A stretch of 41,372 bases of DNA from a virus (IMGVR_UViG_2778261576_000004:1-41372), one strand, 5' to 3'; shown: positions 16,687 to 41,372, counted from the first letter of the stretch. Numbers and translations: made by a program. The notes: a model not told the origin generated them from the sequence alone.

Positions 16687-16763
16687 TGGCGTGGCATGCA
16701 GGATTCGAACCTGCGACCAACCGCTTAGAAGGCGGTTGCTCTGTCCGACTGAGCTAATGCCAC
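16687..16763 (-). tRNA. tRNA-Arg (anticodon UCU)
   Basis: Minus strand folds by hand into a cloverleaf: acceptor GTGGCAT/ATGCCAC, D-arm GCTC/GAGC, anticodon stem ACCGC/GCGGT with loop CTTCTAA, T-arm GCAGG-TTCGAAT-CCTGC, encoded CCA. Confidence 0.85.
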
Positions 16764-21974: not shown

Positions 21975-22580
21975 ATGGCCTCTGTAGTAGAGATCTGCAA
22001 TCGTGCGCTGTCCAATATTGGCAACAGCCGCAGCATTAACAGCCTGACGGAAGCCAGCAAGGAAGCGGGGGAATGTTCGCTGCACTTTGAGGCCTGCCGT
22101 GATGCTGTGCTTTCTGATTTTGACTGGAACTTTGCTACCAAACGCGTGGCGCTTGCAGATACGAGCAATCCACCGCCTGACTGGGAATATGCGTATCAGT
22201 ACCCGTCCGATTGTCTGCGCATTACTGAAATTATGCTTCCTGGTGTACGCAATCCAACAGCAGCAATGCGCGTTCAGTACGAAGTAGGTGTAGACACCAA
22301 CGGAACAGGAAAGTTGATCTACACAGACCAGCCTCAGGCATGGCTCAAGTATGTCTCTCGCGTTACAGATGTGAACATGTTTGATGCCATTTTTATGGAG
22401 GCGTTGGCCTGGCGTCTTGCGGCAGCTATTAACATGGCGCTGACTGGGAATGCAGACCTCGGTACGTTTGCCCTCAATATGTACAATCGCGTGATTCTTA
22501 GTGCTGGCTCGCATAGCCAGAATGAATCACAGGAACCACAGCCACCGGTTGACGAGTTTACCATTGCGAGGTTGTCCTGA
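21975..22580 (+). CDS. Tail tubular protein A-like (T7 gp11-like)
   Basis: 201 aa, size and position matching gp11 immediately before a gp12-like gene. Confidence 0.55.
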   Translation: MASVVEICNRALSNIGNSRSINSLTEASKEAGECSLHFEACRDAVLSDFDWNFATKRVALADTSNPPPDWEYAYQYPSDCLRITEIMLPGVRNPTAAMRVQYEVGVDTNGTGKLIYTDQPQAWLKYVSRVTDVNMFDAIFMEALAWRLAAAINMALTGNADLGTFALNMYNRVILSAGSHSQNESQEPQPPVDEFTIARLS

Positions 22581-25033: not shown

Positions 25034-25497
25034 TGATCGACGTTCAAATTATTCCCGCTACCGAAGAGCATCTTCAGATGATTTTGCCGGATGTTCGTCA
25101 GGCTGATATTGACGAACTGTATGCGGTATCGCTGATGACTACCGAAGATGCGCTGCGTGTTGGTCTGCGTACTGCGACTATGGCCTGGTCAGGATTTGCG
25201 AACGGAGAACTGGTAACCATGTTTGGCGTATCTCCGGCGTCAATGATCGGTGGCAATGGTACGCCCTGGCTGGTCGGAACCAGCCGTATCGAAAAATATC
25301 AGAAGACATTTCTTCGCCACTGCCGCCCTGTATTGCAGCAGATGCTGGCAGTTTATCCGCGCCTGGAAAACTATGTCGACGAGCGAAACCATGTTGCCAA
25401 AGCATGGCTGCACTGGCTTGGATTCAGGCTTGAAGAAGCCGCGCCTTATGGTGCTCTTGGTCTTAATTTCCACAGATTTCACATGGAGAGAAAATAA
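25033..25497 (+). CDS. Putative internal virion protein (gp13 position)
   Basis: 154-aa ORF coupled to the flanking genes; assignment by synteny only. Confidence 0.4.
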   Translation: MIDVQIIPATEEHLQMILPDVRQADIDELYAVSLMTTEDALRVGLRTATMAWSGFANGELVTMFGVSPASMIGGNGTPWLVGTSRIEKYQKTFLRHCRPVLQQMLAVYPRLENYVDERNHVAKAWLHWLGFRLEEAAPYGALGLNFHRFHMERK

Positions 25498-26072
25498 TGT
25501 GCGATCCGGTTATTGCTGGTGGCGCAATGCTCGCCATGAGTGGCATTCAGGCATACACCCAGTACCAACAGGGAAAGTATGCCTCGAAGGTTGCAGAAGC
25601 GAACGCAGATATAGCCACAGCTCAGGCAAATGATGCAATAAACAGGGGTAACGCTGAAGCTGAGCAACGGCGCAGAGAGACCCGACAGCGGCTTGGTACA
25701 CAGGCGGCGACAATGGGGGCTACCGGCGCTGATTTATCTACCGGTAACGCGCTGGATATATTTGGTGACACTGCTCAGTTTGGCGCTCTTGATTCGCTGA
25801 CGACGGTGAATAACGCGCAACGCGAGGCTTACGGTTATCAGGTTCAGGCTGCCAACTATAAAGCAGAAGCCAGTTCAGCCCGTAAACAGGGGAATGTGGG
25901 AGCAGCAACAACATTGCTCACTGCGCCTCTGAAGGCATACGGTGCGTACCAGATGTTTGGTGGGACGTGGAGTCCGTTCTCTAAAGGAAGTACATCTGGT
26001 GGTGGGACGCCAATGTTATCTAACTCAGGTTTTATGAATTCTGACTCCCGATTCAAAATAGGAGGTTACTGA
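25497..26072 (+). CDS. Putative internal virion protein B-like (gp14 position)
   Basis: 191 aa, Ala/Gly/Gln-rich; synteny and size. Confidence 0.45.
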   Translation: MCDPVIAGGAMLAMSGIQAYTQYQQGKYASKVAEANADIATAQANDAINRGNAEAEQRRRETRQRLGTQAATMGATGADLSTGNALDIFGDTAQFGALDSLTTVNNAQREAYGYQVQAANYKAEASSARKQGNVGAATTLLTAPLKAYGAYQMFGGTWSPFSKGSTSGGGTPMLSNSGFMNSDSRFKIGGY

Positions 26073-28819
26073 TGCCTGTTGTTCCTACTACATCCGGACG
26101 CCAGGTGCAAAGTCGTGGTGTGCAAACCGGTGGTTTTCAGACCTTCGATGTTCCTCAAGCAGGTCAGGTGCTGGCGAATGTCGCAGATCAGTATGCGGTG
26201 GCATATGGTGAAGCCAGGCAGAAAGCGAATGTTGCTATGGCCCAGGAGGCGTTACTGCAATTTAACCAATTTGCAGATGACCAGATTAACAACCCTGAAA
26301 ATGGGCTGATTTCTAAACAGGGTAAAAACGCTCTTGGTCAGAGTGACGCTGTTATGAAAAATATGCAGGAAAGGGCTCAGGCATTATTAGGCTCAATCCC
26401 TGAAAGTGAGGAAAGGAATAAATTATCCTTTCAACTCCAGCAGTCTATGCAGTCTTATTACAATCAGGCACGTCGATATGAAGTTGGGCAGTTTCAGCAA
26501 TTCCAAGATCAAACGTATTTGTCAGGAAATGCATTGGCTGTCACTCAGTCTGCGGGGCTATATAGCGATAACCAAGCATTTGTCGATTTAGCCAAGCAGC
26601 GATTTGAATCTATTGATCAATACGCTGATGCGCATGGGCTTCCTGATGAGTGGCGTGTTCAGCAGAAAACTCAGCTCAAGGAAGAAATGGGGCAGCAAGC
26701 ATGGATAGGAAATATCGCTCAAAAATACAACGAGTTTCTTCAGGTTAATGGAGAGCCAGGGGATCTTGGTGGTGTGAGTCGTGCAATATCACATGGTAAT
26801 TCATTGGATGCTCGTGGTTTACGTAATAATAACCCTGGTAATATTGAAGCGAGCAAATCTAACCCGTGGGAAGGTCAGATCGGTAGCGATGGACGTTTTG
26901 CAACGTTTGCTACCCCTGAGCATGGAATCCGCGCGTTGGGTAAAAATATGTTGTCTTACCAGCGTCAAGGCTATGACACCGTTAGCGAGATTGTTAATCG
27001 CTATGCTCCGGCTAGTGATGGTAATAATACTGATGCTTATATTAGGGCATTGTGTGGTGAGCTTGGTGTTGGGGAGAATGATCAGCTTGATATCTCTAAC
27101 CCAAAGACACTAGCTGCTTTATGTGCTGGGATTATTAAACACGAAAATGGCAGTATGCCTTATAGCACCGAACAGCTTGAAACTGGTATCTCGGCAGCCC
27201 TTGGTCTAACTAACCTTGATTCACCTAAGCGTTATACGGGCAATGCGGCATTTGATGCTATGAGCCCTCAAATGCAAATACAGGCATTGAGGCAGGCTAA
27301 TGAGCTGAGAAATCAGTACCGCCAGCAGTATGCGGACCAGCTTAGCACCGTAGTTAAAGATGCATATTCAGCCCTTGATGAAGGATTGAAACCTGAGAAG
27401 TTACCTTCTGAGGACGATTTTATCCGGGCCAATGGTCCGCGCATTGGCGCTATGAAGTGGAAGGATATGCAGGCGCAGATACAATATGGAGGTGTCATTG
27501 GTGCCGCTAAAGACCTCACTCCAGAAGGACGACAAGACATTCTTGAACGTTTACGTCCACAGGATCCAAACGCTCCTGGATTTGCTGCTAACCAGCAACG
27601 CTGGGAGAAAATGCAGGCCAAATTTAAAGAGATGGATAGGGAGTGGGAGATTCAGCAGGGAAGAAACAGGTTCGTGTCTTCAATGCAAAATAACTTCCCG
27701 CTGGACCCGAACGACAAAAACAATCAGGCAGCGGTAGACCGTTATTTCGCGCAGGATATCGCGCCTTCGTTTTCCATATCTGATCCGCAGAGCATCAATA
27801 CACTGGTCACCGTCACAACTAAAAGCGGCATGATACCAACTCAGGTTAAAACAATGCTTAACAGTGGAGCAACATCAAGAGATCCTGCGCTGGTTGTCCC
27901 GATGGCAAAATTCTACGGTCAGTTATTCGATAATAATCCGGCGGCAGCGGCAACACTTGATAAAAGTACGATGGCATTTTACGGCAAGGTTTACGATTAT
28001 TCCCGCGCTGGCGTGCCGGAGGATAAGGCTGTTGATATGGCTTACAGCCAGGTGTTCCAACAGGATGACCGAATGAAACAGATGCTTTCCACTGCCATGC
28101 GAGACAAAAAATATGTCGCGGCGAGGGCAACTGCTGCACAAAATAACGCCAGCAGTCTGACTTCCTTTGGTTCGTGGTCTCCGGATATTACCGATCCAGG
28201 AAAATCAAATGCGGCCTATCAGCGAGATTACCAGACAATTTACGATGCTAACTTTGTACAGACAGGTGGCGATGCAGAACAGGCTGAGAAAATGACCAAT
28301 GCCATGATCAGAACCACCTGGGGAGTTTCTACGGTTAATGGCAAAGCAGAGGTTATGAAGTATGCACCTGAGGCATTGTACGGAGTAAATAATGGTGCTG
28401 GTAACTGGATACAGGGGCAGTGGGAGCAGGAAAAACGCGAGCTTAAATCAAAATCCTTTGGCGGTCCTCGCAGTGATACGGACTTAATACTTGTTTCTGA
28501 TGGCCTTACGGCAAGGGATAGGAGTTATGCTGTTATGGTTTTACAGCCTGACGCAAACGGAGCGATAGAACCGAGAAATTATATTGGAGAAAATGGTCTC
28601 CCTGTTCGTTTCAAGCCGGATCAGCTGACATCTCCAATGTACAGGCAAACCATTCAGTTACAGCAACAGCGTGTTGATGAGGCTAGAGTGCGGAGAGAAG
28701 GCAATCCGCTGCCGCAGTTCAGCAATAAAGATGGATATACTCCTCCAGATCTGACCAAACCATTCGGTTATGGTTCAGCCAATTACCTTCCGAGCAATAT
28801 ATACGCAGGGGGCAAATAA
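26072..28819 (+). CDS. Putative internal virion (ejection) protein C-like
   Basis: 915-aa ORF in the gp15 position; contains a visibly AT-richer internal segment (about 26.3-27.3 kb). Confidence 0.5.
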   Translation: MPVVPTTSGRQVQSRGVQTGGFQTFDVPQAGQVLANVADQYAVAYGEARQKANVAMAQEALLQFNQFADDQINNPENGLISKQGKNALGQSDAVMKNMQERAQALLGSIPESEERNKLSFQLQQSMQSYYNQARRYEVGQFQQFQDQTYLSGNALAVTQSAGLYSDNQAFVDLAKQRFESIDQYADAHGLPDEWRVQQKTQLKEEMGQQAWIGNIAQKYNEFLQVNGEPGDLGGVSRAISHGNSLDARGLRNNNPGNIEASKSNPWEGQIGSDGRFATFATPEHGIRALGKNMLSYQRQGYDTVSEIVNRYAPASDGNNTDAYIRALCGELGVGENDQLDISNPKTLAALCAGIIKHENGSMPYSTEQLETGISAALGLTNLDSPKRYTGNAAFDAMSPQMQIQALRQANELRNQYRQQYADQLSTVVKDAYSALDEGLKPEKLPSEDDFIRANGPRIGAMKWKDMQAQIQYGGVIGAAKDLTPEGRQDILERLRPQDPNAPGFAANQQRWEKMQAKFKEMDREWEIQQGRNRFVSSMQNNFPLDPNDKNNQAAVDRYFAQDIAPSFSISDPQSINTLVTVTTKSGMIPTQVKTMLNSGATSRDPALVVPMAKFYGQLFDNNPAAAATLDKSTMAFYGKVYDYSRAGVPEDKAVDMAYSQVFQQDDRMKQMLSTAMRDKKYVAARATAAQNNASSLTSFGSWSPDITDPGKSNAAYQRDYQTIYDANFVQTGGDAEQAEKMTNAMIRTTWGVSTVNGKAEVMKYAPEALYGVNNGAGNWIQGQWEQEKRELKSKSFGGPRSDTDLILVSDGLTARDRSYAVMVLQPDANGAIEPRNYIGENGLPVRFKPDQLTSPMYRQTIQLQQQRVDEARVRREGNPLPQFSNKDGYTPPDLTKPFGYGSANYLPSNIYAGGK

Positions 28820-31800
28820 TGCCGATATATGAACAGGATCCTAAAGAGTTGCTTGGCGAGGATATTCAGCAAATAGCAGCACCTGATGACAGTAATTTCT
28901 ATATGGAAACACCTTCTTTGCTTTCTGCTGTGAACCCATTTACCAGTGATCAACGCGTTCAAAGGTCTAGACAAGCAGCATTTCGTATAGATAACACGCT
29001 GGGTAGCTTTATTGCCAGTGCTCCTTTCAGTCAGTTTGACAGGGTTGAAGGATATAACCCATTTGATAACGATGCAGCAGATATTAAAGGCTATGAAGAT
29101 TTTGCAGATTCGTTTATCAACTCCGGTTCGCCTGAAGAAACAATGGCAATTAAACATCGAATCGATCAGCAGAGAGCTGACATGGAATACAATTCAGGCT
29201 TGGGATTTGCTGGTACAGTCTCTTCTGTAGCAATGAGATTAGCAGATCCATTCAATGCGATTTCTATGTTTATTCCGTTCGGCGCTGTTGTTCGTGGCGG
29301 TCGTATTGCAGAAACAGCCGGGCGTTTTGCCCTGGCGAATGCTGCTGGCAGTGTTGCTTCAGAGGCCGCATTACAGGCCACTCAGGAAGCTCGCTCACCG
29401 ATGGAGAGCGTATCGAACGTTGTTGTTGATGCTCTCGTTGGTGGGATCCTTGGTGCTGGTGCACAGCTACTTGCTGGACCTGGCGCGCGCGAGGCAGTGG
29501 TTAACTCAGTAGGTAATCATTTGCGAGGTATGGATTCTCCTCAAAGCATTGGTGCAGCTCAGGTTTTCAATACCACACTCGATCAGGAACAGCTCGCTGG
29601 ACTTGGACTTGCTAACAAAACGTTGAGTGTCACTCCTGCTGGCCGCTTGGCGCAATCACCATCTCTTGTCTCCCGTCAGATTAACCAGCAGCTTGCCGAA
29701 AATAACTATTTCTTCGCCAAAAATGATGAGGGGTTGGCTACGTTTACGGCAGTCGAGACTAAGATTAAGCAATACGACGCCATGCTTTATAAGCAGATGG
29801 AAGCCACTCGTGATGCTTACCAGCAGTACAGCAAATCTGTTAGCGCCCGCGGCGTGAAGAGGATGAACTTTATTGATTTCAATGAAGCTGTTGGCATGGC
29901 TATGCGCCGTGGTGATCAGAGTGATATTCCTGAGGTTTCACAAGCAGCCGCCAGAATCCGCCCCATTTTCGAGACCACAAAAGCCCGTATGCAGGAACTG
30001 GGGATCCTTCCTGAGGATATCGATGTCGTGACGGCGAAAAGTTATCTTCCCCGCATTTATAAGTTCGATAAGATACTTTCCGACCGCACTGAATTCAGAG
30101 GGCGAATTGCCAACTGGATACAAGGGATTAGTGCCAAAGGTGCTGACAAAGCAGGTCAGCGAATTGAAAGGATAAATTCATTGCTAAAAACTGCAGAGGA
30201 ATCGGCACCGCGCGCTGATGCTCTCGCTAGTGAAATCGCTGAAGCGGAGAAATGGTCTGGTAAAAAAATTCTACTCATGGAAGAACTGGATAAACGAAAT
30301 AAGCTTATATCTCAGGAGACTGACACACAGGCGCGTCTTACAAGAATAGAAAAAGAGTTGGCCGAGACTTCATCAGAAAAACTTCAGGCAAGAATGATGA
30401 AAGAAAGCTCTGACCTTAAAACACGCCTTGATGATATAGCGCAGGCAAAGAGTGAGCTTCCTGTCTATCAGCGCCATATGGAGTTGTTGGATAATCCACG
30501 GAAATATCGTTCTGAGCTTCGCCGACTGCAAAAACGGGCAAATTCAACCACAAGGCTGAATGCAAGCCGCGAACGAGCACTGAAGCAGATGGAGCCTCTA
30601 TCCCGAGAGGAAGCAGAGGACGCTGCTGACGAGATCGTGAATAAAATAATAGGCGCACCTTCCGGGCTTGTACCAGCCGATATTATCCCAGAGAGACTCG
30701 TTGGTCGGGCTGGTTTCACTAAAAGCAGAACGCTGCTTATTCCTGATGAGCGTATAGAAGATTTTCTTGAATCAGATGTTAACTACATCATGGAAAGTTA
30801 TCTCCGGCAGGTGGCACCAGAAATTGAGCTGACTGCGCAGTTTGGCCGTAAAGATATGGGGGAGCAAATCCGTCAGGTTAGTGAGGAATATACCCGGCTA
30901 ATAAAAGAGGCTAAAACACCTAAACGACGTGCAGTTCTTGAGAAGCAACGGGAGGCTGATATTAGGGATATTACGGCTATGCGTGATCGACTGCTTGGTA
31001 CTTACGGTGCACCTCAAGATCCACGCAGTTTCTTTGTTCGTGCCGGGCGAGTTGCTAGGAATATTAACTTCCTCCGTTTGCTTGGTGGAATGACCGTCTC
31101 CGCTGCAACTGATCTGATGCGACCGATGATGCAGCATGGCCTGAGAAAATCTCTCGGACCAATGGTAAGCATGCTTAAAAATATGGACTCAGTGAAGATT
31201 GCAACCAGGGATTTGCGAGAAATGGCCGTTGGGCTTGATTATGTCCTGTCTACGCGTACAAAGGCTATAGCGGATCTTACTGACCCATATAGCCGGAGAA
31301 GCGCCGCTGAGCGAGGCCTGAACTGGATGACGCAGAAATTCGGTAACTGGACGCTGATGAATCAGTGGAACAGCGCACTTAAATCATGGTCTGGGATGAT
31401 AGTGCAGTCGAGGATACTTGACGCGGCTCGCCAAGTTTCTGCTGGTGGCACGCTCTCCAAAAGTGAAATGCGGAAGATGGCACAGGTCGGCATCAATGAA
31501 GATGTTCTGCGTCGAATCGGGGAGCAATTCGGGAAGCACGGAGAGGATATGGACGGGCTGTTAACCGGGCATAGTCATCTGTGGGATGACCGTTTCGCTA
31601 GAGAGATTTTCCAGTCTGCAGTGCTGAAAGATGTAGACTCAGTGATTGTAACGCCTGGCGTAGGTGATACACCGCTGTTTTTTAGTAAAGAAGGCTGGAA
31701 GATGATCACGCAGTTCAAAACGTTTATCTTCGCACAGCATAACAGGGTGCTAGTATCTGGTATCCAGCAGGGCGATGCTGCATTCTATCTTGGTGCGCTT

Positions 31801-32208
31801 GGCACGATTGCGCTTGGCTCAATGGTCTATATGATGAAACAGAAGTTAAGCGGTCGCGATATCGACTACAGCTGGAATAACCTTGTGAAAGAGGGGATCG
31901 ACCGGGGCGGAATGCTTGGCTGGCTCTCTGAGCCGCTGAATACCGTTGAGAACATAAGCGGCGGTAGGTTTGGTCTTGGCGCGATGTTTGGTGCGCCTCC
32001 GGTATCAAGGTTTCAGAGTCGTAATGCTATTGGTGCTTTACTTGGTCCTACCTTTGATCTTGGCGGTGATGCCGCGACGGTTGCGAATGGTGTACTTAAC
32101 GGAGAATTTGACAGCCAGCAAACCCACGCGGTCCGTAAAATGCTACCTTTTCAGAACCTGTGGGCGATATCACCGTTACTAAATAAAGTTGAAGAGCAGA
32201 TGAAATAG
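28819..32208 (+). CDS. Putative internal virion (ejection) protein D-like
   Basis: 1129-aa ORF in the gp16 position; long coiled-coil regions and hydrophobic Gly/Ala-rich stretches. Confidence 0.55.
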   Translation: MPIYEQDPKELLGEDIQQIAAPDDSNFYMETPSLLSAVNPFTSDQRVQRSRQAAFRIDNTLGSFIASAPFSQFDRVEGYNPFDNDAADIKGYEDFADSFINSGSPEETMAIKHRIDQQRADMEYNSGLGFAGTVSSVAMRLADPFNAISMFIPFGAVVRGGRIAETAGRFALANAAGSVASEAALQATQEARSPMESVSNVVVDALVGGILGAGAQLLAGPGAREAVVNSVGNHLRGMDSPQSIGAAQVFNTTLDQEQLAGLGLANKTLSVTPAGRLAQSPSLVSRQINQQLAENNYFFAKNDEGLATFTAVETKIKQYDAMLYKQMEATRDAYQQYSKSVSARGVKRMNFIDFNEAVGMAMRRGDQSDIPEVSQAAARIRPIFETTKARMQELGILPEDIDVVTAKSYLPRIYKFDKILSDRTEFRGRIANWIQGISAKGADKAGQRIERINSLLKTAEESAPRADALASEIAEAEKWSGKKILLMEELDKRNKLISQETDTQARLTRIEKELAETSSEKLQARMMKESSDLKTRLDDIAQAKSELPVYQRHMELLDNPRKYRSELRRLQKRANSTTRLNASRERALKQMEPLSREEAEDAADEIVNKIIGAPSGLVPADIIPERLVGRAGFTKSRTLLIPDERIEDFLESDVNYIMESYLRQVAPEIELTAQFGRKDMGEQIRQVSEEYTRLIKEAKTPKRRAVLEKQREADIRDITAMRDRLLGTYGAPQDPRSFFVRAGRVARNINFLRLLGGMTVSAATDLMRPMMQHGLRKSLGPMVSMLKNMDSVKIATRDLREMAVGLDYVLSTRTKAIADLTDPYSRRSAAERGLNWMTQKFGNWTLMNQWNSALKSWSGMIVQSRILDAARQVSAGGTLSKSEMRKMAQVGINEDVLRRIGEQFGKHGEDMDGLLTGHSHLWDDRFAREIFQSAVLKDVDSVIVTPGVGDTPLFFSKEGWKMITQFKTFIFAQHNRVLVSGIQQGDAAFYLGALGTIALGSMVYMMKQKLSGRDIDYSWNNLVKEGIDRGGMLGWLSEPLNTVENISGGRFGLGAMFGAPPVSRFQSRNAIGALLGPTFDLGGDAATVANGVLNGEFDSQQTHAVRKMLPFQNLWAISPLLNKVEEQMK

Positions 32209-32649
32209 CTATTCACAATTAGTGATGGCGTATGTATCAAATATATTGCCATCACTAAATACATACCTATACTCAATCACTCCGCCAAGGTGAATAAATG
32301 CTTTCATTTGCCTGTTGGAGCAAATGCTCGATTTTGAATAATTTCGCATTACACTCTTTAATTTATTTTCTAAGGTTACATCACCATTATAAACTTTTGA
32401 TAAATAGCTGTTGTTGTAATTAAGATGCGCTACAACTAAAAGTTTGTTTAGTATTGCATTTATTGAAACAATAGACATATTATCATTCAATTTTATGGGA
32501 AGTGACTTTCCTGCTTCTGATGCAATTTTGTTTGCATGTGCACACATATCCTCATTTATTAAATTCTTAAAACATATGTCGTTTGCAAACGAAAAAATTG
32601 GTAGGATAAACAAAACGGTAGCTGTAATAGCGTGCATCGGCTTAATCAT
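32209..32649 (-). CDS. Hypothetical secreted protein (AT-rich accessory gene)
   Basis: N-terminal signal-peptide-like segment (AITATVLFILPIFSFA); strongly AT-rich coding sequence; convergent with the upstream virion gene. Confidence 0.4.
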   Translation of the reverse strand: MIKPMHAITATVLFILPIFSFANDICFKNLINEDMCAHANKIASEAGKSLPIKLNDNMSIVSINAILNKLLVVAHLNYNNSYLSKVYNGDVTLENKLKSVMRNYSKSSICSNRQMKAFIHLGGVIEYRYVFSDGNIFDTYAITNCE

Positions 32650-32661
32650 TAGGTGACCTTT

Positions 32662-33111
32662 ATGTTCAAGAAGATGATCAACAGATTAATCGGTGGTAAG
32701 GAGGTTAGCAATAAAATTCAACCTCTTATCTTTAAGGATAACTTTTCAGCTTTTGAGTATGCGTGTAAGTATCTTGACACAAGCCTTTCAGCCAATAAAC
32801 CAATGCCAGCCATCATCATACCTGGTCCCAGTGGGGAACAGCCAGTTTTGCTGGATTCTGGAAGACAAAGGGCAATGCTGAAGGTGTGCTCAGCTGATGG
32901 TGGATTTTTTGTTATTGCCGATTCATCTTACAGCAAAGGACCAAAGCTGAGGATTGGTGATCTTGTTGCTTGGTTGCCTGTGAGTTATGCCGAAGAATTA
33001 ACGGATAAAATAGAAGATCCTCGCTCCGCTATGGTTGGCTTTATATTGGGAACCATTCATCCTGAACTAACATCTACTGGCTGGAAGGGTAAAGAAAGAT
33101 TTCGCAAGTAG
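32662..33111 (+). CDS. Hypothetical protein (AT-rich accessory gene)
   Basis: ATG 32662 with AGGTGA SD; divergent from the 32209-32649 gene with almost no spacer; followed by a terminator. Confidence 0.4.
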   Translation: MFKKMINRLIGGKEVSNKIQPLIFKDNFSAFEYACKYLDTSLSANKPMPAIIIPGPSGEQPVLLDSGRQRAMLKVCSADGGFFVIADSSYSKGPKLRIGDLVAWLPVSYAEELTDKIEDPRSAMVGFILGTIHPELTSTGWKGKERFRK

Positions 33112-33125
33112 CGTGACATGTCACA

Positions 33126-33149
33126 GGCCGCTTTCGCGGCCTTGTTTTT
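33126..33149 (+). terminator. Rho-independent terminator
   Basis: GGCCGC-TTTC-GCGGCC hairpin followed by TTGTTTTT; directly preceded by the GTGACATGTCAC palindrome. Confidence 0.6.
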
Positions 33150-33309
33150 AACGAATGCCACCGCCGCCCGGACGGGAATCCGCAGAACGCCCACCGCAGC
33201 GGGAGCCGTCAGCAGCAGTGTCGCTGTCGTGCTGACAACGACCGGCAAAGGCCTGAGTTGAAGCTACCAGAGACAACAAAACGAACAGTGCAGCAAATGC
33301 TTTTTTCAT
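33148..33309 (-). CDS. Hypothetical small secreted peptide
   Basis: Predicted signal peptide MKKAFAALFVLLSLVASTQAFA followed by a 31-aa Gly/Arg-rich tail with two Cys; weak SD. Confidence 0.25.
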   Translation of the reverse strand: MKKAFAALFVLLSLVASTQAFAGRCQHDSDTAADGSRCGGRSADSRPGGGGIR

Positions 33310-33401
33310 TGTGAAATTTCCATCTATAAGCCACCTCAATGTGGCGTCAATGAGTGTAGCACTGACTTTTGTTTCGCCCACAAAAAAGCCCGCAGCGCGG
33401 G

Positions 33402-33842
33402 CTATTCTTCTTCATCATTAAAAAGCGGATTGTTGTTTCCATCTGATGAAAGGAAAGGTATGTGTTCTCTTGAAAATCCAACAATGACAATTTCATTATC
33501 ATTTTTTGCATAATGAATGCATTCATTAGAATGCCTTCCGCCAGGGTTGAAATTTAAGTTAATGGTATAATTCTTAAATGTGTTTGGATACCATGTTGGC
33601 CCACAATGATAATGCCAATAATTCTCTTGCTCATAATTGTCTGAGCCGGGAATTTTATCATGGTTATCATCAACCCACGAGGGCTTGTTTTTTCCAACAA
33701 GCGCCCTTCCATTGGCAACATCCTCTAAAAAACTTTGTATGATTTTTATTTCATCATCAGTAAGGAAAGGTCCGTCTACAGCGAAAGGGGTGTTGCTTTC
33801 CCCATGTAGAAAACTATTAGATATTCTAATGTTAAACTTCAA
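33402..33842 (-). CDS. Hypothetical protein (AT-rich, probable TTG start)
   Basis: TTG at 33842 preceded by CAGGAG SD; AT-rich; downstream partner of the 33863-34030 gene. The ORF-track N-terminal extension to 33983 overlaps the better-supported small gene. Confidence 0.4.
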   Translation of the reverse strand: MKFNIRISNSFLHGESNTPFAVDGPFLTDDEIKIIQSFLEDVANGRALVGKNKPSWVDDNHDKIPGSDNYEQENYWHYHCGPTWYPNTFKNYTINLNFNPGGRHSNECIHYAKNDNEIVIVGFSREHIPFLSSDGNNNPLFNDEEE

Positions 33843-33862
33843 GGAAAACTCCTGATGTGCTT

Positions 33863-34030
33863 CTATTTGGAGCGAAATGCCGCCTTGAAGTCGCTGAAAG
33901 ATGTTCCTGTCTGGTAAACCATATCCTTGTCGCGCTCTTTGCTTGCGCGGCCAAGCATAACTTTTCCAATGACATCCCAGCATTGCTTGGCTTGTTCATT
34001 GTGCTGAGTACGATTTTTCAACGCTGTCAT
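33863..34030 (-). CDS. Hypothetical small protein (55 aa)
   Basis: ATG 34030 with a strong AAGGAGG SD 6 nt upstream and a palindrome copy directly 5' of it; translation MTALKNRTQHNEQAKQCWDVIGKVMLGRASKERDKDMVYQTGTSFSDFKAAFRSK. Confidence 0.4.
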   Translation of the reverse strand: MTALKNRTQHNEQAKQCWDVIGKVMLGRASKERDKDMVYQTGTSFSDFKAAFRSK

Positions 34031-34042
34031 ATCGCGCCTCCT

Positions 34043-34057
34043 TTACCTTTAAGGTAA
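34043..34057. promoter_or_regulatory. TTACC-N5-GGTAA palindrome at the 5' end of the small-gene cassette
   Basis: Perfect TTACCTTTAAGGTAA abutting the SD; upstream on the minus strand are a TTGCAG -35-like and TACTAT -10-like hexamer with 17-bp spacing. Confidence 0.4.
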
Positions 34058-34129
34058 TAGTACGCTATTCACCCACAGTCTGCAATCTGTACAGAATTAT
34101 TTAAAGGCACATCCCTGTGCCGCCGCCCG

Positions 34130-34786
34130 TCAGAAGAACCCAGCCTTGTCGTTGATGTACTCCGCGTGGGTCTGGATATCACGCAGGCATTTGCTCACAC
34201 CAACAATGTAGCAGAACATGGTGGTCAGCTCCGCCGCCGCACCCGATACGTCGTGCCCGTCTTCCTGTAACTGGTTCAGCAGATTCATCAGCAGTGAGTT
34301 CTCCGTCAGGCCGAGAACACCAGACGGCGAATGAATCAGGCTACGGTAGCCGGGCTTCAGTGGGGCGCTGTATTCTTTTTTGTCTTCCAGCTTGATCGCC
34401 TCCATAATGGCGGGCATGAAGCCTGACAAGACCTTCTCCACTTTTGTTTCTTGTTGTCTTAAACGTTTCTCGCATTCAATGAAGTAGCGTCGCACCTGGC
34501 GACCTTTTTCGTTACGCTCGACCATCGCCAGCTCTTTGGCTGTATCAAGGGTGAGGTGGTACTCTTTGCGGTTGTGGCCGCCTCTACCAGATGTTTGCTT
34601 TCCCAAATTGGAAAGCAAAATATAGTCTTGATTTTCAATGAATTCGTATTCTGATATGCGATTTGTAATCCATGCTGCAAACACCTTTTTAACACCTAAA
34701 AAAGCGTGCAGATCGCGGGCATTACAAAGTAGGGCTGTTTCGTTAGATATAGTGCCGTTGAATACGGGGATGAGTTGAGCGTTCAT
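34130..34786 (-). CDS. Phage antirepressor (AntA/AntB-type N-terminal domain)
   Basis: N-terminus [38 protein letters not shown] matches the AntA pattern as recalled; C-terminal domain shared with the 35104-35361 product; GGAGA SD. Confidence 0.7.
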
Positions 34787-35103
34787 GATGGCGTCTCCAC
34801 TTAGCGAATTACATCACCACCGCTGAGACCAATCAGATGGTGGTGAACTGAACGGAGTTGGTCTTACCGGCCTAAGTGGTACCGGCGTCCTTTCGGACCC
34901 CCATTCAGCCCACCATAATTCTGGCATGACTGTGCTATACGCATAAAAAAACCACGTCTGGCGTGGTATGCGCCACTTAGTAATCCGGGAGACCAATCCC
35001 GGCACTGGATTTTGCCAGTGCCCGATTACTATGGCACAAGAGGAGTGCGATGTAAATTTACCGCAAAGGTAAATATAAGCACTCCTTTTGGTAATTGCAA
35101 ACC
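34787..35103 (-). other. Structured non-coding leader/spacer with intrinsic terminator
   Basis: Several perfect hairpins (e.g. CCGGGA-GACCAA-TCCCGG, CACTGG-ATTTTG-CCAGTG), a minus-strand terminator (CCACG-CCAGA-CGTGG then T7) near 34943-34964, and a palindrome copy (35058-35072) nested in an 8-bp stem (AGGAGTGC/GCACTCCT). Confidence 0.4.
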
Positions 35104-35361
35104 TTATCTGGTTTGTTTACGTAATTGTTCGGCACAATAGTCGAGATGTGTTTGCAGATCCCGCATAGACATCTGTGAGCTGGTGACGTAGTTAATCAGT
35201 GCAGTCAGTTCGGCAAGTGGGCCATCGACATTAAATCCATCCTTATCGAGCTCCCGGAGTAATTTCATCAAGTGCGATCCCTCCACCAGTGATCTGACGC
35301 CTCCCGGCGTGTGAATCCTTTCGGTAAATCCGTCTTCCAGTGGATAGTGATACTGCTGCAT
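35104..35361 (-). CDS. Small protein homologous to the antirepressor C-terminal domain
   Basis: ...TPGGVRSLVEGSHLMKLLRELDKDGFNVDGPLAELTALINYV... aligns by eye with ...[42 protein letters not shown]... of the antirepressor; ATG 35361 with GGAGAA SD (ORF-track TTG at 35379). Confidence 0.45.
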   Translation of the reverse strand: MQQYHYPLEDGFTERIHTPGGVRSLVEGSHLMKLLRELDKDGFNVDGPLAELTALINYVTSSQMSMRDLQTHLDYCAEQLRKQTR

Positions 35362-35437
35362 CTTATCTTCTCCATGCAATAACTGTATATTTATACAGTA
35401 TCAAATAATTTGTTTGCTATCCAGCACGTTTTGAAAA

Positions 35438-35502
35438 TTACCTGAAAGGTAATATATATTCGTATTTACAGCCTTTCTATCCATATGTGGTTTTACAGGT
35501 AA
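35438..35502. promoter_or_regulatory. Palindrome (35438-35452) plus TATGTGGTT box (35484-35492) and GGTAATA in the divergent region upstream of the tailspike gene
   Basis: TTACCTGAAAGGTAA is identical to the copy upstream of the portal operon. Confidence 0.45.
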
Positions 35503-35556
35503 TAGAATAACCAGATATGCGGCGCAACGGGTGCTGCGACTATCTGGAGATTTAAC

Positions 35557-37686
35557 ATGACGGTCTCAACCGAAGTTGACCACAACGAATACACAGGTAA
35601 CGGCGTTACGACATCGTTTCCGTATACTTTTCGAATTTTCAGAAAATCAGACCTGGTTGTTCAGGTGTCTGACCTGAACGGGAACGTAACAGAATTGGTC
35701 CTGGATACCGGTTATACGGTAACTGGGGCGGGCACTTATAGTGGCGGTTCTGTGGTTCTTCCGTCTCCTCTTGCTGCTGGCTGGCGAATTACGATAGATC
35801 GTGTGCTTGATGTAGTGCAGGAGACAGACCTTCGCAATCAGGGAAAATTTTTCCCCGAAGTGCATGAAGATGCTTTTGACTACCTGACGATGCTGATCCA
35901 GCAATGTTTTGGGTGGTTCAGACGTGCATTGATGAAACCATCTTTGCTTGCAAAATATTACGATGCAAAGCAAAACAGAATTTCTAACCTTGCAGATCCA
36001 TCACTTGAGCTTGACGCTGTAAATAATCGCTCAATGCGTAATTATGTCGATGCTGCAATCGCCGGGGTTGTTGGTGGTTTTGGTTGGTTTATTCAGTATG
36101 GTTCTGGGGCAGTATACCGAACGTTCCAGGATAAGATGAGAGACACCATTAGTGTTCGTGATTTTGGTGCAAAAGGAGACGGCATAACAGATGATACTGT
36201 AGCAATTCAAAATGCTATTAATGCAGTACCAGAAGGGGCTATACTTGGATTTTATGGTGGTGAATTTGTTTTTGATAAGGTTGAATTGTTTAAGCCAATA
36301 ACATTAGTTGGTGATGCAACGTTAATTCACAACGGATTTAGAATAAAATCTAGCAGAATCCGATCGCTTTTATCTGGCGTTCAGAAATGCAAGGATTACT
36401 CCGAGTCTTCAAGAGCATTTTATTGCTATGCAAATGAAGACCAAAGAGATTATGACGATATTCAGATTTTATTTAATAGATTTGAAGGTTTCTTTTACTC
36501 TACGGCATTTGTTGCAAAAAACTATTATTTGGAGAATGACCCTAATTCAAGAACTGTCAAAAACACAAAAGTAATAGGGTGTACATCAGTTGCTCCTGAT
36601 TCTGTAAATGCCGGTCATTTTCAACATATAGGCGTTACAAATGCTGAAACATCACATAACTCAACTTATGGCGGACAAAATGCAACATCATACAACTTCA
36701 TTAACCAGAATGGATTTGTAAGGATTATAGGAAATTATGACCATAACAATAGCTATGGTTCATGTGAGCTTGAGAACTCAATGGTGAGCAACTCAGTTAT
36801 ATCAGGTAATACGTTTTCGTCATATTTATGGGTGGATGATACAAGTAATGTTACTATTTCTGGAAATACCGTTTCATCAAGGATCAAAGTAACATCGCAA
36901 ACTGACGATGTTCATAATATAACCATATCAGCAAATACCACAAAACGGATTACTATAGAGCAATTTGGAGAATCTCCGACAGGTCTGGTATATGGTGCAT
37001 TAATTTCCTGTAACACTATTACTGGCGACAGTGATGGAAGTTCAGACATTTTATGTACGTCACTTGTTACAGGTGAGATTTCATCAAATTATTGTCATGG
37101 ATCAGAAAAAAATATATCAATTGTCCGCCTGGATTCTTCTGATATAACTGTTAGAAACAATAAAGGAAACAAAGGATTACTTACAATAAGTAACGATGGT
37201 GGAAGGATAATTGAATATGGCAATGATTCTATGGTTCTGTCTGGAAGCATAGATAGCAGACATATACATAATTTATTACATCCAGACACATCGTATTTAG
37301 ATCTACCGGGGAAATATCTGCACGGAACTAAATATACTGGCAGTATCCCCCCCGGTTCCACAGGAACTGTATCACTTCAAATACCATCAGGGGCAAGCCT
37401 TGTTTTCAGGGGTGTTTCTATATGGGTTCTAATTAGAGATGTTAGCAATAACAATATATCGTCATTCAGAATTGATGGTTCATATAGAGTTGTTGGTGGA
37501 AGTGTTGGTCTTAGTTTTGCTGATGCTTATTCGAAACTCGGGGTGGATGCAAACTCTATAACAGTGTCAAACAATAACAGCACTTCTGACAATATCAGCA
37601 TAGCAATTAAAAACACAGATTCATCAAAAACCCTTCAGGTTACTGTTATGCCGGAGGTTTCAAGCAGGTTAGGTATTGAGGAATAG
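35557..37686 (+). CDS. Tailspike/tail fiber with T7 gp17-like N-terminal adaptor and pectate-lyase-like beta-helix domain
   Basis: N-terminal 130 aa resembles the gp17 tail-attachment domain as recalled; VRDFGAKGDGITDDTVAIQNAI is the signature start of right-handed beta-helix depolymerases; C-terminal two-thirds are AT-rich. Confidence 0.8.
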   Translation: MTVSTEVDHNEYTGNGVTTSFPYTFRIFRKSDLVVQVSDLNGNVTELVLDTGYTVTGAGTYSGGSVVLPSPLAAGWRITIDRVLDVVQETDLRNQGKFFPEVHEDAFDYLTMLIQQCFGWFRRALMKPSLLAKYYDAKQNRISNLADPSLELDAVNNRSMRNYVDAAIAGVVGGFGWFIQYGSGAVYRTFQDKMRDTISVRDFGAKGDGITDDTVAIQNAINAVPEGAILGFYGGEFVFDKVELFKPITLVGDATLIHNGFRIKSSRIRSLLSGVQKCKDYSESSRAFYCYANEDQRDYDDIQILFNRFEGFFYSTAFVAKNYYLENDPNSRTVKNTKVIGCTSVAPDSVNAGHFQHIGVTNAETSHNSTYGGQNATSYNFINQNGFVRIIGNYDHNNSYGSCELENSMVSNSVISGNTFSSYLWVDDTSNVTISGNTVSSRIKVTSQTDDVHNITISANTTKRITIEQFGESPTGLVYGALISCNTITGDSDGSSDILCTSLVTGEISSNYCHGSEKNISIVRLDSSDITVRNNKGNKGLLTISNDGGRIIEYGNDSMVLSGSIDSRHIHNLLHPDTSYLDLPGKYLHGTKYTGSIPPGSTGTVSLQIPSGASLVFRGVSIWVLIRDVSNNNISSFRIDGSYRVVGGSVGLSFADAYSKLGVDANSITVSNNNSTSDNISIAIKNTDSSKTLQVTVMPEVSSRLGIEE

Positions 37687-37762
37687 CATCATATATAATT
37701 ATTTTAATGTTAATGCCGTCTTCTTGTTGGCGGCTTATTTGTGAAAATGGAATGAGTTATTT

Positions 37763-38062
37763 ATGATGAATATAGAAGTTGATATAACACCAATTCTTCA
37801 CGCACTTTGCGCTGTTGTCGCACAAGTTCTGGTTGGTCTTTTTACCGGAAACTGGGTTTACGGTGCGATAGCTGGTTGTACGTTCTTCATTGCGCGTGAA
37901 CACGCCCAGGCAGAATATCGCTGGATAGAAAAGTTTGGGAAAGGGAAACGTATCAACATGCCGTGGTGGGGAGGTTTTGATCCGCGCGCATGGGATGTTG
38001 GAAGCCTGTTTGACTTTGTTGTTCCTGTTACTGTTTGTTTTTGTGTTTATTTCTCTATTTGA
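37763..38062 (+). CDS. Hypothetical membrane protein
   Basis: 99 aa with hydrophobic segments at both ends; between tailspike and lysis genes. Confidence 0.35.
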   Translation: MMNIEVDITPILHALCAVVAQVLVGLFTGNWVYGAIAGCTFFIAREHAQAEYRWIEKFGKGKRINMPWWGGFDPRAWDVGSLFDFVVPVTVCFCVYFSI

Positions 38063-38284
38063 CTGCTACCGCGCCATTTGATGGTGCGGAATTCAACTAA
38101 TCCTCTATATTTTGAATCATTTCTGTACTGCAATCTCTTCAGAGTTATGTAAAAGGCAAGCCTTATTATCGACATGAAAGGAAGGGGATTGACAATGCAT
38201 GGGTAACAAAAAACCATAAATGGTTTATCATGCGTAATGCCTTTACTATTCAGGAGGTAGTTATGCATATAAACGGTGGAAAAC

Positions 38285-38689
38285 ATGTCAGCTCAACTAA
38301 CCAGTGAAACTTTAAATCAGTGGCTTAGCATGAGTTCTCTGGCGGCGGTGATAGCAGGAGTTCCTCCTGAGGTTGCTTTGGGGGCTTTGGCTGGGGCGGT
38401 AATTTTTGTTACCTCTGCGGTAGAGTATCCTATTCGTCGTCGTGTACTCTTGTCGATGCTTAGCTTTCTCTGCGGCCTTCTTTTTTATAAACCAGCAGCA
38501 TCAATTCTTATCGGCATAGCCAGCCTGATCCCTACCATCACGCAGGACTCTTTTGAAAAAGGGATTGTTTTCTCAGCTGGCGCATTCGTGTCAGCAATTG
38601 TTGCTGTGCGTATTGGTATATGGCTCTATCACCGTTCCGATAATCCACGCGAGTTAATTCCGGGGAGAAAAGACGATGGTAACGCATGA
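38285..38689 (+). CDS. Putative holin or holin-associated membrane protein
   Basis: Multiple predicted transmembrane segments; immediately upstream of the second membrane protein and endolysin. Start ambiguous (GTG 38276 or ATG 38285); a 14-codon uORF with strong AGGAGG SD starts at 38263. Confidence 0.4.
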   Translation: MSAQLTSETLNQWLSMSSLAAVIAGVPPEVALGALAGAVIFVTSAVEYPIRRRVLLSMLSFLCGLLFYKPAASILIGIASLIPTITQDSFEKGIVFSAGAFVSAIVAVRIGIWLYHRSDNPRELIPGRKDDGNA

Positions 38690-38984
38690 GTTTTTTTTGC
38701 TTATCACCAATGCAGTTATTTGTACTGGCATAGCAATTCGCGTTGTCACATTCCGGCGTAACGGCTCTCAACATCGAAGATGGGGAGGGTGGCTTGCTTA
38801 TTTCCTTATTGTTGCTGCGGCCAGTATTCCTGTTCGTGTCGTCTATGCAATCTGGTTACGCACGCCAATGGCTGTGGATTTATCTGAGGTCATTATCAAC
38901 GCTGTCATGCTTGCCGCGGTTATTAAAACACGCGGTAACGTTGTTCAGATTTTCAAAATATCGAGGTCTAAACATGGAGATTAA
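38676..38984 (+). CDS. Putative holin (three hydrophobic segments)
   Basis: 102 aa, start overlaps the upstream gene and end overlaps the endolysin start. Confidence 0.4.
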
Positions 38985-39603
38985 ACAATTCCAGCGAGCT
39001 GCTGGTATTAGCGAGTCGCTGGCCGCACGCTGGTTCTCGCATATAACTTCTGCGATGAAAGAGTTTGGTATCAGCAAAGCAGAAGATCAGGCAATGTTTA
39101 TTGCTCAGGTCGGGCATGAGTCTGGGGGCTTCACCCGGTTGCAGGAGAATTTCAACTACAGCGTCAGCGGACTGGCTAACTTTGTTCGGGCTGGGCGTCT
39201 CACTCAGGGACAGGCCAACGCATTGGGGCGACGCGCAGGCGAACCACCATTGCCACTTGAGCGCCAGAGAGCGATTGCCAATCTGGTGTACAGCAAACGC
39301 ATGGGGAACAATGCCCCCGGCGATGGCTGGAATTACCGTGGCCGCGGACTTATCCAGATTACCGGTTTGAATAACTATCGTGATTGCGGAAACGGCCTGA
39401 AAGTGGACCTGCTGGAGAATCCTGAACTGTTGGCGCAGGACGAATACGCGGCTCGTAGCGCGGCGTGGTTTTTTGCCAGCAAAGGCTGCATGAAGTATAC
39501 CGGTGATATTGCACGTGTAACTCTGATTATCAATGGTGGCAGGAATGGCATCGACGACCGGCGCGCGCGGTACGTCACTGCCAGTAAGGTGCTGGCTGTA
39601 TGA
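38974..39603 (+). CDS. Endolysin, glycoside hydrolase family 19 (chitinase-like)
   Basis: [12 protein letters not shown]...[15 protein letters not shown]...INGG motifs characteristic of GH19 phage endolysins; no signal peptide; ATG 38974 with GAGG SD. Confidence 0.85.
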
Positions 39604-40082
39604 TCTGGTCATTCGTAAAAGCATACCGTAAACAGTTGATTATCATGGCGGTGCTTGCTGTTCTGGTCATATCAGGAGTTGTTGCCTGGAATGTGCACGG
39701 CAGTCGTCAGTACGACGCTGGGTATGCACAGGCGAAAGAAGACCGCAAAACCGAAGATGAGAGAGTTCGTCAGCACTACGAACAGGAGAAATCGATCAAT
39801 GAACGTGAAGCGCAGCAGAGGATCGACCAGGCGCGCAATGATGCTCTTGATGCTGCCGCTCGCGCTGGCCGGTTGCAGCAACAGCTCGTTGCCATCCGTG
39901 AGCAGCTCAGGCAGTATAACGCCATTGTCGGCGCTGGGACGTCAGCCGCAGACACCGGAGTTTTGCTTGCCGACGTGCTCAGTAAATCTCTCGAGAGAAA
40001 CAGACAACTGGCAGAGTATGCTGACCGGGCAGCCGAAGCCGGAAGAGTCTGTGAAAAACAGTACGACACCCTGACCAGATAG
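39600..40082 (+). CDS. Rz: Rz-like inner-membrane spanin (i-spanin)
   Basis: N-terminal transmembrane segment [18 protein letters not shown] followed by a Gln/Arg/Ala-rich coiled coil; start overlaps the endolysin stop; contains an embedded +1-frame lipoprotein ORF. Confidence 0.75.
39838..40074 (+). CDS. Rz1: Rz1-like outer-membrane lipoprotein spanin (o-spanin), embedded in Rz
   Basis: +1-frame ORF wholly inside Rz: [13 protein letters not shown] with an L-A-G-C lipobox, then a Pro/Ser-rich periplasmic segment. Confidence 0.6.
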   Translation: MMLLMLPLALAGCSNSSLPSVSSSGSITPLSALGRQPQTPEFCLPTCSVNLSRETDNWQSMLTGQPKPEESVKNSTTP

Positions 40083-40237
40083 CATGGCATTTTTCATGGT
40101 ACTGATTTCCGGTGACGGTATATAAAACGGTACGAGGAAAATTGAGCTTTGGAAAAACGTTATCACTCAATTGGTTATGGTGCCAGTAAATAATTGAGTG
40201 GGAATGATTTTGATCCCTGCACTATGAATGAACAAAA

Positions 40238-40301: not shown

Positions 40302-40841
40302 TTAATTAAACCAGCTGTCCGATTTGTTCTCTTCTGCTTTGCCCACGCTTTTCATCAGATCGCGACCGCCTTCAGTCATATTTCTGTTTGCGTCAGCTTC
40401 AGATTGCACCACATCGGTTTGCGCAGCTTTGTGCTTCAGTTCCTGATCGATAAATTCGTTTTCGCGCTTAACGCGGGCTTCTTCTTTCGCCAGTGCCAGT
40501 TTTTGTTTCTGAATCTCTAAGCTGCGTAGCTCATCTTCATAACTTTGATCGCGTTTTTTGTCCGCAGTGGCTTCGGCGTCCAGTTTATCCTGACGAGCTT
40601 TCTTATTTGCCGCTGCCGTTGCCGCTCTTTTATTAGCCGCGGCCTGGGCGTTTGCGCGACGTTGCTTCTCTTGCTGGATTTCCCTGTTGCGCTCCGCGAC
40701 CCATTCGTCATGCTGCCTTTGCTCTTCATTTTTACCTTGCTGTTCCGCTTCTGCGACAGCCGAGAGTTGATCCTGCAATGATGAGGCGATAGCCGGATAG
40801 CTAAAGGAGGCTAAGATGGCGCAAAGAAAAACTTTCTTCAT
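40302..40841 (-). CDS. Secreted periplasmic coiled-coil protein
   Basis: Signal-peptide-like N-terminus MKKVFLCAILASFSYPAIA; Lys/Glu/Ala/Gln-rich helical body; family not confidently recognised. Confidence 0.45.
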   Translation of the reverse strand: MKKVFLCAILASFSYPAIASSLQDQLSAVAEAEQQGKNEEQRQHDEWVAERNREIQQEKQRRANAQAAANKRAATAAANKKARQDKLDAEATADKKRDQSYEDELRSLEIQKQKLALAKEEARVKRENEFIDQELKHKAAQTDVVQSEADANRNMTEGGRDLMKSVGKAEENKSDSWFN

Positions 40842-40856
40842 GACTCCTCCTGATTA

Positions 40857-41372
40857 TTAGCTCTTTTCAGGACATTTGGTATTTGGCTGAATACGCGTTT
40901 CGTTATACGTCGTGGTAATAACAACGGCTAAACCTGTCGTAAACTGGCACTCTTTACCCACCTGGGTGGAGGTATACACTTTGGTGCCTTCCTTATACGT
41001 TAGAGAAACACCTTCCACTAAGGTTTTATCATTCACCATAGAACCCGCTGCCGCGCCAACAGCTCCGCCGCCAACTGCACCTGCCGTCGTTCCGGAATTG
41101 CTGCCAGACCCCACGTTGTGGCCGATTACACCGCCAGCGACTGCACCAATAAGCGCGCCGAAGGCTTGTGCGTTTCGTTTATTTTGGGAGTTGTCTACGG
41201 CAACTTTTGCGGGAAGAATGGAAATAATATTAACGGTTTTAGTTTCTTGTTTGGTATTCAGTTGATCGGTTTGATAAACATCGGCGGCATGATCATCAGC
41301 ATTTGACTGGCATCCTGCCAGAGTGAATGACGCTAACATTGCCACAGGCAGAAGACATTTTTTAAATTTCAT
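40857..41372 (-). CDS. Glycine-zipper lipoprotein (SlyB/17-kDa-antigen-like)
   Basis: Lipobox LAGC after a signal peptide; Gly/Ala-rich glycine-zipper segment (GALIGAVAGGVIGHNVGSG...AVGGGAVGAAAG); start codon is the last triplet of the window. Confidence 0.55.
   Translation of the reverse strand: MKFKKCLLPVAMLASFTLAGCQSNADDHAADVYQTDQLNTKQETKTVNIISILPAKVAVDNSQNKRNAQAFGALIGAVAGGVIGHNVGSGSNSGTTAGAVGGGAVGAAAGSMVNDKTLVEGVSLTYKEGTKVYTSTQVGKECQFTTGLAVVITTTYNETRIQPNTKCPEKS

Follow-up and report, generated by a model that had tools for sequence, protein, structure and literature searches.

Podoviruses change their host range mainly by the modular exchange of receptor-binding domains, a principle that is also the basis of phage and tailocin retargeting. 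The present analysis concerns the tailspike gene of a viral DNA of 41,372 nucleotides (IMGVR_UViG_2778261576_000004, positions 1-41372; the whole stretch is hereafter called the window), which corresponds to an integrated prophage. The closest described counterpart of this gene is found in Escherichia phage phiv142-3 (Orf6, QGF19612.1, deposited as 'putative tail fiber protein'), in which all 2130 bases align at 98.9% nucleotide identity, a few amino acids are replaced and the genome context is the same, including a downstream open reading frame (ORF) of 99 amino acids and the lysis genes. In other words, the element is of a textbook kind, and the gene itself is already deposited and discussed in the literature: the protein has been described as receptor-binding protein subtype X1, with no assigned serogroup, in a study that also sets out the general exchange principle (PMC10408124). 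The locus represents a clean example of such an exchange, with breakpoints at base level, one body on three anchor types and an exchange that reaches into the downstream gene. The reading favoured here, which we hold with high confidence, is that the protein is a receptor-binding tailspike whose body was exchanged as a cassette and which likely cleaves a surface polysaccharide of Escherichia coli.

Other described systems share one or the other part of this protein. The tailspikes of epsilon15 (gp20) and phiV10 occupy the same position in the virion module and have a similar N-terminal anchor (67-71% identity over residues 1-166), but the similarity ends at about residue 166 and their bodies are unrelated to the one described here. 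The 663-amino-acid tailspikes of P22-like (Lederbergvirus) prophages (WP_411330242, SFAD3), instead, have a body that is 99% identical in protein sequence from I198 to the C-terminus. These prophages also share a terminator-like hairpin and most of the 99-amino-acid ORF; however, their spikes carry the PF09008 head-binding domain and a linker of 45 residues, and they belong to another backbone with other integration sites. More remotely, the N-terminus of T7 gp17 shows, on the basis of modelling, the same fold and a collinear layout (beta-sandwich, helix, 'DA..RI.NLA....DAV' motif), and the tail genes upstream follow a T7-like order, although the identity is 16-18% and T7 has a fibre in place of a beta-helix spike. 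Of the solved structures, the tailspike Dpo31 of the marine phage Carin-1 (PDB 8ck1, 28lx) is the one nearest to the anchor, with 48% identity in the aligned part. Dpo31 has been experimentally shown to be an exopolysaccharide depolymerase, with the order anchor, coiled coil and beta-helix; its D3 domain, however, is described as a left-handed trimeric beta-helix, not homologous to the present body (PMC13317679). Finally, the tailspikes of Sf6 and HK620 and the A-module of AlgE4, proteins with known substrates, share with this body a right-handed parallel beta-helix and a DFGA.GDG-type N-terminal cap, but with an identity of 9-18% and with catalytic residues that are not alignable by sequence.

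Breakpoints and distribution of the exchanged cassette

The preliminary description of this DNA, drawn from the sequence alone, placed a tailspike gene at 35557-37686 and interpreted it as a mosaic; both statements hold, the gene being a plus-strand ORF of 709 amino acids with an ATG start. The tailspike is made of two modules of differing history, an anchor (residues 1-197) and a body (residues 198-709), and the exchanged unit extends beyond the gene into the small downstream ORF. In particular, phage ZX5, a member of the same genus with a K1-type body, aligns with the window as far as 36152 and resumes at 38261, while HEMP4, of the same genus and with a different body, aligns at 35000-36128 and 37779-40209. 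The segment 36147-38017 is matched, with 98.7% DNA identity over 1871 bases, by a P22-like prophage of E. coli SFAD3 (L004). The points at which the ZX5 and HEMP4 matches end and the P22-like match starts place the left crossover within 36128-36152, a sharp junction. The DFGAxGDG motif that follows is also present in ZX5.

The right junction was located by comparing alleles of the downstream ORF. Its 5′ end is 100% identical to the P22-like allele and 60-80% identical to that of HEMP4, whereas at its 3′ end the identity is 97% with HEMP4 and 40% with the P22-like allele. Between them, a core (37853-37972) is conserved in the window, P22-like and HEMP4 alleles, and such a shared core is what homologous recombination would need. 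The body came in by recombination, in a cassette of about 1.7-1.9 kb whose share of G and C bases (GC) is 36%, with the left crossover falling just before the widely conserved DFGAxGDG cap motif and the right one inside the membrane-protein ORF. As for the direction of the exchange, a 45-residue linker upstream of I198 is common to the P22-type copies and to those with a PF18668-type N-terminus and is missing from this gene, which suggests that the Uetakevirus copy is the recipient.

The distribution of the two modules was surveyed in 5426 complete E. coli genomes. The anchor occurs in about 500 of them, the body in 37, always with at least 98.5% DNA identity, and the whole gene in 32. The same body, with 99% protein identity, is found on the P22 head-binding domain (PF09008, 663 amino acids, many E. 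coli) and on a PF18668 N-terminus (675 amino acids). The early proposal of a recent exchange agrees with this near identity, which extends at the DNA level across Uetakevirus and P22-type copies. Moreover, a cassette that is nearly unchanged on P22-type and PF18668-type anchors points to one host-recognition module common to unrelated phages, and the swapped module would set the host range, as had also been supposed. More distant relatives of the body, with an identity of about 40-52% in the aligned protein, are joined to true T7-type (PF03906), PF12571 and PF18668 anchors, and occur also in Aeromonas, Arthrobacter and G7C-like phages.

Some copies of the body are damaged. The EC.W1-9 copy is split into two coding sequences (L003, 5001-7129), the XH993 copy is interrupted by the insertion sequence IS1 (NZ_CP019361, 1466665-1468928), and the P22-type copy of ECJXMCRH7 (P0120) is truncated to 509 amino acids. 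Other truncated forms, of 552-581 amino acids, are found in draft assemblies.

The anchor and the body

On sequence grounds, the proper family of the anchor is the epsilon15 gp20 type: residues 1-165 are 70.9% (that is, 71%) identical to epsilon15 gp20 (expect value, E, 3e-68), the identity with the phiV10 tailspike is 67%, and the PHROG tail families share residues 1-166 of the tailspike, with phrog_13893 and phrog_20231, both 'tail protein', as top matches. Weaker relatives of the anchor are found in podoviruses of Pseudomonas, Xanthomonas, Pelagibacter, Bordetella (BPP-1) and Vibrio. Dpo31, aligned over its domains D1-D2 (E 4e-32), is the one relative by sequence that has a solved structure. 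D1 has been described as a beta-sandwich (residues 8-87) followed by coiled-coil helices (PMC13317679). An AlphaFold2 model of the N-terminus, built on 27 relatives, has a comparable layout, with the beta-sandwich predicted at a local confidence (pLDDT) above 95, followed by two helices (Table 1). Searched with Foldseek, this model retrieves 8ck1 as top match, with a template-modelling (TM) score of 0.88, followed by fibre N-termini in the tail complexes of LME-1, Kp7, PhiM1, T7, Kp9 and P-SCSP1u. Specifically, the matches to the T7 gp17 N-terminus (7ey9, 7boz) have probability 1.0, E from 5.6e-5 to 7e-4 and TM scores of 0.55-0.59 on the target.

Profile and sequence comparisons with T7 are fainter. 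The Pfam model of the T7 tail, PF03906 (Phage_T7_tail), gives no match with the full protein, and with the N-terminus alone it reaches 15.1 bits (E 0.019) over residues 135-161 only, below the gathering threshold of 25.2 bits; among the 28 aligned anchor sequences, 13 match it, the best E being 2.8e-11. In a direct comparison with T7 gp17, hhalign returned a collinear alignment of 135 columns with E 0.01 and a probability of 4%, and BLASTP a motif of 22 residues only, neither of them convincing by itself. In the model, then, the anchor has the gp17 N-terminal fold, and it is probably a distant homologue of the gp17 N-terminus. Consequently, the 'T7-type adaptor' of the preliminary description stands as regards fold and distant homology, and not as regards family, as the PF03906 threshold is missed and the epsilon15 gp20 type takes its place. 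The extent of about 130 residues assigned to it was too short, since conservation reaches about residue 166 in comparison with epsilon15 and phiV10 and residues 194-197 in comparison with close Uetakeviruses. The gp17-like fold agrees with the T7-like order of the virion module, which comprises the portal, the major head protein, two tail tubular-type proteins and four internal virion proteins (Table 1). In analogy with T7 gp17, the anchor would attach the spike, presumably a trimer, to a T7-like tail at the junction of adaptor and nozzle; likewise, homology to 8ck1 and to the T7 tail complexes argues for a trimeric virion tail component.

The body begins with the signature that had been attributed to pectate-lyase-like enzymes: ISVRDFGAKGDGITDDT lies at residues 198-214, within the sole Pfam match above threshold, PF12708 ('Rhamnogalacturonase A/epimerase, pectate lyase-like', residues 198-255, 44.7 bits with a cut-off of 27). 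The beta-helix expected from this signature is found in the AlphaFold2 model, in which residues from about 200 to 700 are mostly above a pLDDT of 90 and residues 197-562 form an all-beta helix; phage tailspikes, namely those of vB_ApiP_P1, Sf6, AM24 and HK620, take the top ranks in the Foldseek search. A first homologue search was swamped by near-identical sequences and was unusable as a structure alignment, and the body alignment holds 43 sequences from a 50%-representative search. In this alignment, conserved asparagines recur in a regular series from N418 to N556, as expected of a stacked beta-helix. Moreover, the residues of the most conserved block (Table 1) are 81-100% conserved in 41-43 relatives that are 23-83% identical to the query, with values of 91-100% for D395, E406, D427 and D428, and this conserved acidic centre may harbour a glycan-cleaving active site. 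The body most likely would bind and cleave an E. coli surface polysaccharide (O-antigen or capsule), and so let the virion reach the outer membrane.

Two family assignments were rejected. The RefSeq name 'glycosyl hydrolase family 28-related protein' would suggest GH28 membership, but there is no PF00295 match even at E up to 1, and the NCBIfam rhamnogalacturonidase model scores 21 bits against a cut-off of 500 and covers the cap only; the protein is not to be filed there. Nor is it a P22-type tailspike: it lacks the PF09008 head-binding domain that the 663-amino-acid relatives with the shared body possess.

Receptor, activity and alternative explanations

Several observations weigh against the reading of an exchanged, glycan-cleaving receptor-binding protein, or at least against parts of it. 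Sequence matches to solved structures are limited to the N-terminal cap motif, and a profile search of solved structures with the body alignment aligned the cap motif only; as matches to solved enzymes cover nothing but the cap, catalytic residues are not transferable and the presumed enzyme may be a hydrolase or a lyase. In addition, the closest structural neighbours mix epimerases, lyases, hydrolases and the non-catalytic adhesin PfbA, which has the highest identity (23-24%), so that the chemistry may be any of these and the protein may even be non-catalytic. A further point is the range of serogroups. Copies at least 95% identical have been reported in prophages of O1, O5, O51 and O102 strains (PMC10408124), and DE142, the host of phiv142-3, is O2 (PMC7724020); lysogens of such a range fit ill with a single O-antigen as receptor. 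AT-richness alone, moreover, gives no date for the transfer. In favour of the reading, on the other hand, the P22-type copy is present in exactly 10 of the complete genomes, of which 5 also hold a Uetakevirus-type copy, where 0.06 co-carriers would be expected by chance (Fisher p 1.3e-9, a value that leaves clonal relatedness uncorrected). This co-occurrence fits two unrelated phages confined to the same set of hosts, and it would seem that either a resident prophage does not block a second phage with the same module, or the body was swapped between prophages within one cell. The co-carriers are Ecol_881, IR53017, CUVET19-970, SCZE5 and ECJXMCRH7.

The spread over serogroups can be explained in either of two ways, namely that the glycan targeted is not the O-antigen, or that clones which had inherited the prophage underwent a later switch of O-antigen. 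The first option leads to a tentative refinement of the favoured reading, which we consider possible and clearly less probable than the reading it refines: the body would be a polysaccharide lyase or an epimerase-like enzyme, its substrate being a capsule or exopolysaccharide that contains uronic acid and is common to several O-serogroups, and not an O-antigen glycosidase. Besides the serogroups, it draws on St11Ph5, whose body is 47% identical to this one and whose resistant mutants, derived from its O5 host, retain a wild-type lipopolysaccharide (LPS) ladder (PMC6393563), and on the deposited EC.W1-9 copy, annotated as 'eliminase'. Against it, no lyase catalytic motif was found in the body, and several serogroups could come from O-antigen switching in a prophage-inheriting clone, many genomes carrying the gene at closely similar chromosomal coordinates. 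In the literature the specificity of this module is not assigned, and the St11Ph5 data are at most suggestive. The identity of the receptor would help the design of phage therapy, although it would bring no new concept; together with the companion ORF, it is the point of interest of this locus. The module is found in lysogens of the extraintestinal (ExPEC) and avian (APEC) pathogenic E. coli type, which belong to several serogroups, and a link with serum fitness has been reported.

That link is the origin of a much less probable alternative, in which the protein is mainly a non-catalytic adhesin or a lysogen fitness factor (serum growth, iron acquisition) and not a virion depolymerase. With orf6 deleted, the APEC strain DE142 grew less well in serum and in iron-poor medium and reached lower loads in blood and heart of infected chickens, and complementation restored these traits (PMC7724020); the position of PfbA as the structural neighbour of highest sequence identity points the same way. 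The phenotype was, however, published without a mechanism and could be indirect. A virion role is indicated by the position of the gene, by the homology of its anchor to virion-bound spikes (8ck1, T7 tail complexes) and by the recurrent exchange of the body among phage receptor-binding genes, and a strongly conserved acidic cluster would be unexpected in a mere adhesin. A possibility is that the serum and iron phenotype is a secondary effect of the receptor-binding tailspike, and not its primary function.

Base composition provides a further line of evidence on the exchange. The gene was said to be visibly AT-rich from about 36.2 kb onward, and a two-segment likelihood scan indeed places the best change point at window position 36183 (codon 210), where the GC fraction falls from 0.461 on the left side to 0.360 on the right side; the likelihood-ratio statistic of 18.8 lies beyond the maximum of 14.7 in 300 codon shuffles, and the shift is thus real. 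The stretch of 1.5 kb with the lowest GC in the window is the one at 36.2-37.7 kb (window mean 0.482); only 4 of the 798 sliding windows have a GC this low, the lowest one starting at 36300. The body keeps a GC of 36% on all three anchor types, and those anchors have 43-47%. That this step reflects the amino-acid make-up and codon usage of an Asn/Ser/Thr/Ile-rich beta-helix, with no horizontal exchange, is scarcely credible: GC at first codon positions does fall from 0.55 in codons 1-194 to 0.41 in codons 195-709, so that the shift is partly due to amino-acid composition (second positions are unchanged), but third positions fall as well, from 0.42 to 0.25, no GC step is seen in ZX5, whose anchor is the same and whose body differs, and the exchange is demonstrated apart from composition by the sharp breakpoints at 36128-36152 and in the small ORF and by the identity of the body in an unrelated phage backbone, the breakpoint mapping being what excludes composition as the sole explanation.

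Companion reading frame and prophage neighbourhood

The coordinates of the tailspike gene, of its domains and of the surrounding elements are collected in Table 1. Promoter-like sites in the region are no more frequent than in shuffled sequences, and the one listed is a consensus match.

Table 1. Elements of the tailspike locus (window coordinates, all on the plus strand)
Element	Position	Strand	Remarks
Virion module, T7 order	21975-32208	+	tail tubular A-like protein of 201 amino acids, B-like of 817; internal virion proteins of 154, 191, 915 and 1129 amino acids
Promoter-like site	35431-35460	+	TTGAAA, 18-nt spacer, TATATT; consensus match only, 10/12 positions
Ribosome-binding site	35546-35549	+	GGAG, read from the sequence; 7 nt before the ATG
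Tailspike gene	35557-37686	+	709 amino acids and stop codon, ATG start
Tail-attachment anchor, residues 1-197	35557-36146	+	predicted beta-sandwich 9-82, long helix 100-125, second helix 151-172, linker; GC 0.461
Left recombination junction	36128-36152	+	codons for D196-T197-I198-S199, with the crossover placed at I198-S199, directly before the DFGAxGDG motif (DFGAKGDG here)
Right-handed parallel beta-helix, residues 197-562	36145-37242	+	predicted; receptor-binding, presumed glycan-cleaving domain
Most conserved block of the body family, residues 342-428	36580-36840	+	candidate active site; H354, D395, E404, E406, W425, D427, D428
C-terminal beta-sandwich, residues ~575-709	37279-37683	+	predicted all-beta, pLDDT mostly 85-97; within the exchanged cassette
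Terminator-like hairpin	37715-37744	+	GCCGTC...GGCGGC and T-rich tail; after the tailspike stop, inside the cassette; nearly identical in the P22-like prophage
99-amino-acid predicted membrane protein	37763-38062	+	phrog_1443, unknown function
Right recombination junction	37853-38017	+	inside the 99-amino-acid ORF; from allele comparison

The 99-amino-acid ORF goes with the body whichever of the three anchor types the latter is fused to: it comes after the body in P22-like prophages, which occupy no fewer than three integration sites, and on the contig of the PF18668 type (L005). In general, this ORF lies 3′ of receptor-binding genes in several kinds of temperate coliphages. Pfam, NCBIfam and PHROG searches with it gave nothing informative, the first two returning no match at all. 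Its role could be that of a recombination arm, of a receptor-linked lysogenic-conversion gene, or of both. The most extended interpretation of the locus, which we regard as rather unlikely as a whole, is a two-gene cassette in which a beta-helix enzyme against a non-O-antigen glycan of several E. coli serogroups travels with a linked small membrane protein; the latter would be the right homology arm and perhaps modify or mask the receptor in lysogens, and the spike would perhaps also affect serum fitness. Lambdoid phages (phage 21, mEp460, lambda variants) have homologues of the small ORF with about 77% identity, and one of 83% follows the different body of HEMP4.

As to its context, the tailspike gene belongs to an integrated Uetakevirus (epsilon15/phiV10-like) prophage. 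An integrase ORF lies at the start of the window and the host genes yfgI and yfgH at the right end of the prophage, and the right arm (33112-40209) is 98.96% identical to that of phiv142-3, itself a Uetakevirus. The temperate podovirus genome, of about 40 kb, holds one receptor-binding gene, placed between the virion module and the lysis cassette, as is proper to a Uetakevirus. Downstream of the tailspike, the membrane-protein ORF is followed by two holin-type genes, a GH19 endolysin and a DUF2514 Rz-like gene; upstream, a block of about 3.3 kb, containing accessory and antirepressor genes, separates it from the internal virion protein gene.

Two ORFs of this block, at 32209-32649 (minus strand) and 32653-33111 (plus strand), belong to PHROG families of unknown function and look like accessory genes; together with the antirepressor genes they sit between the internal virion protein gene and the tailspike. 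Window positions 32001-33000, with a GC of 0.384, are the second-lowest kilobase of the window. An intact ORF of 193 amino acids (33402-33983, minus strand; phrog_5954, unknown function) lies in a low-GC patch of 0.35-0.40, and the published primer for the phiv142-3 orf10 knockout reads in its frame, where GenBank has only short ORFs (Orf9, Orf10). Deletion of orf10 was reported to lower serum resistance and the expression of K1 capsule genes (PMC7724020). The right flank (40302-41372, minus strand) carries yfgI (DUF5384) and yfgH (glycine-zipper lipoprotein); in CE0007a an IS200 element is inserted between the Rz-like gene and yfgI, and the present window has no IS200 there. Finally, a transfer RNA gene, tRNA-Arg (anticodon TCT), is located inside the prophage at 16687-16763 on the minus strand.

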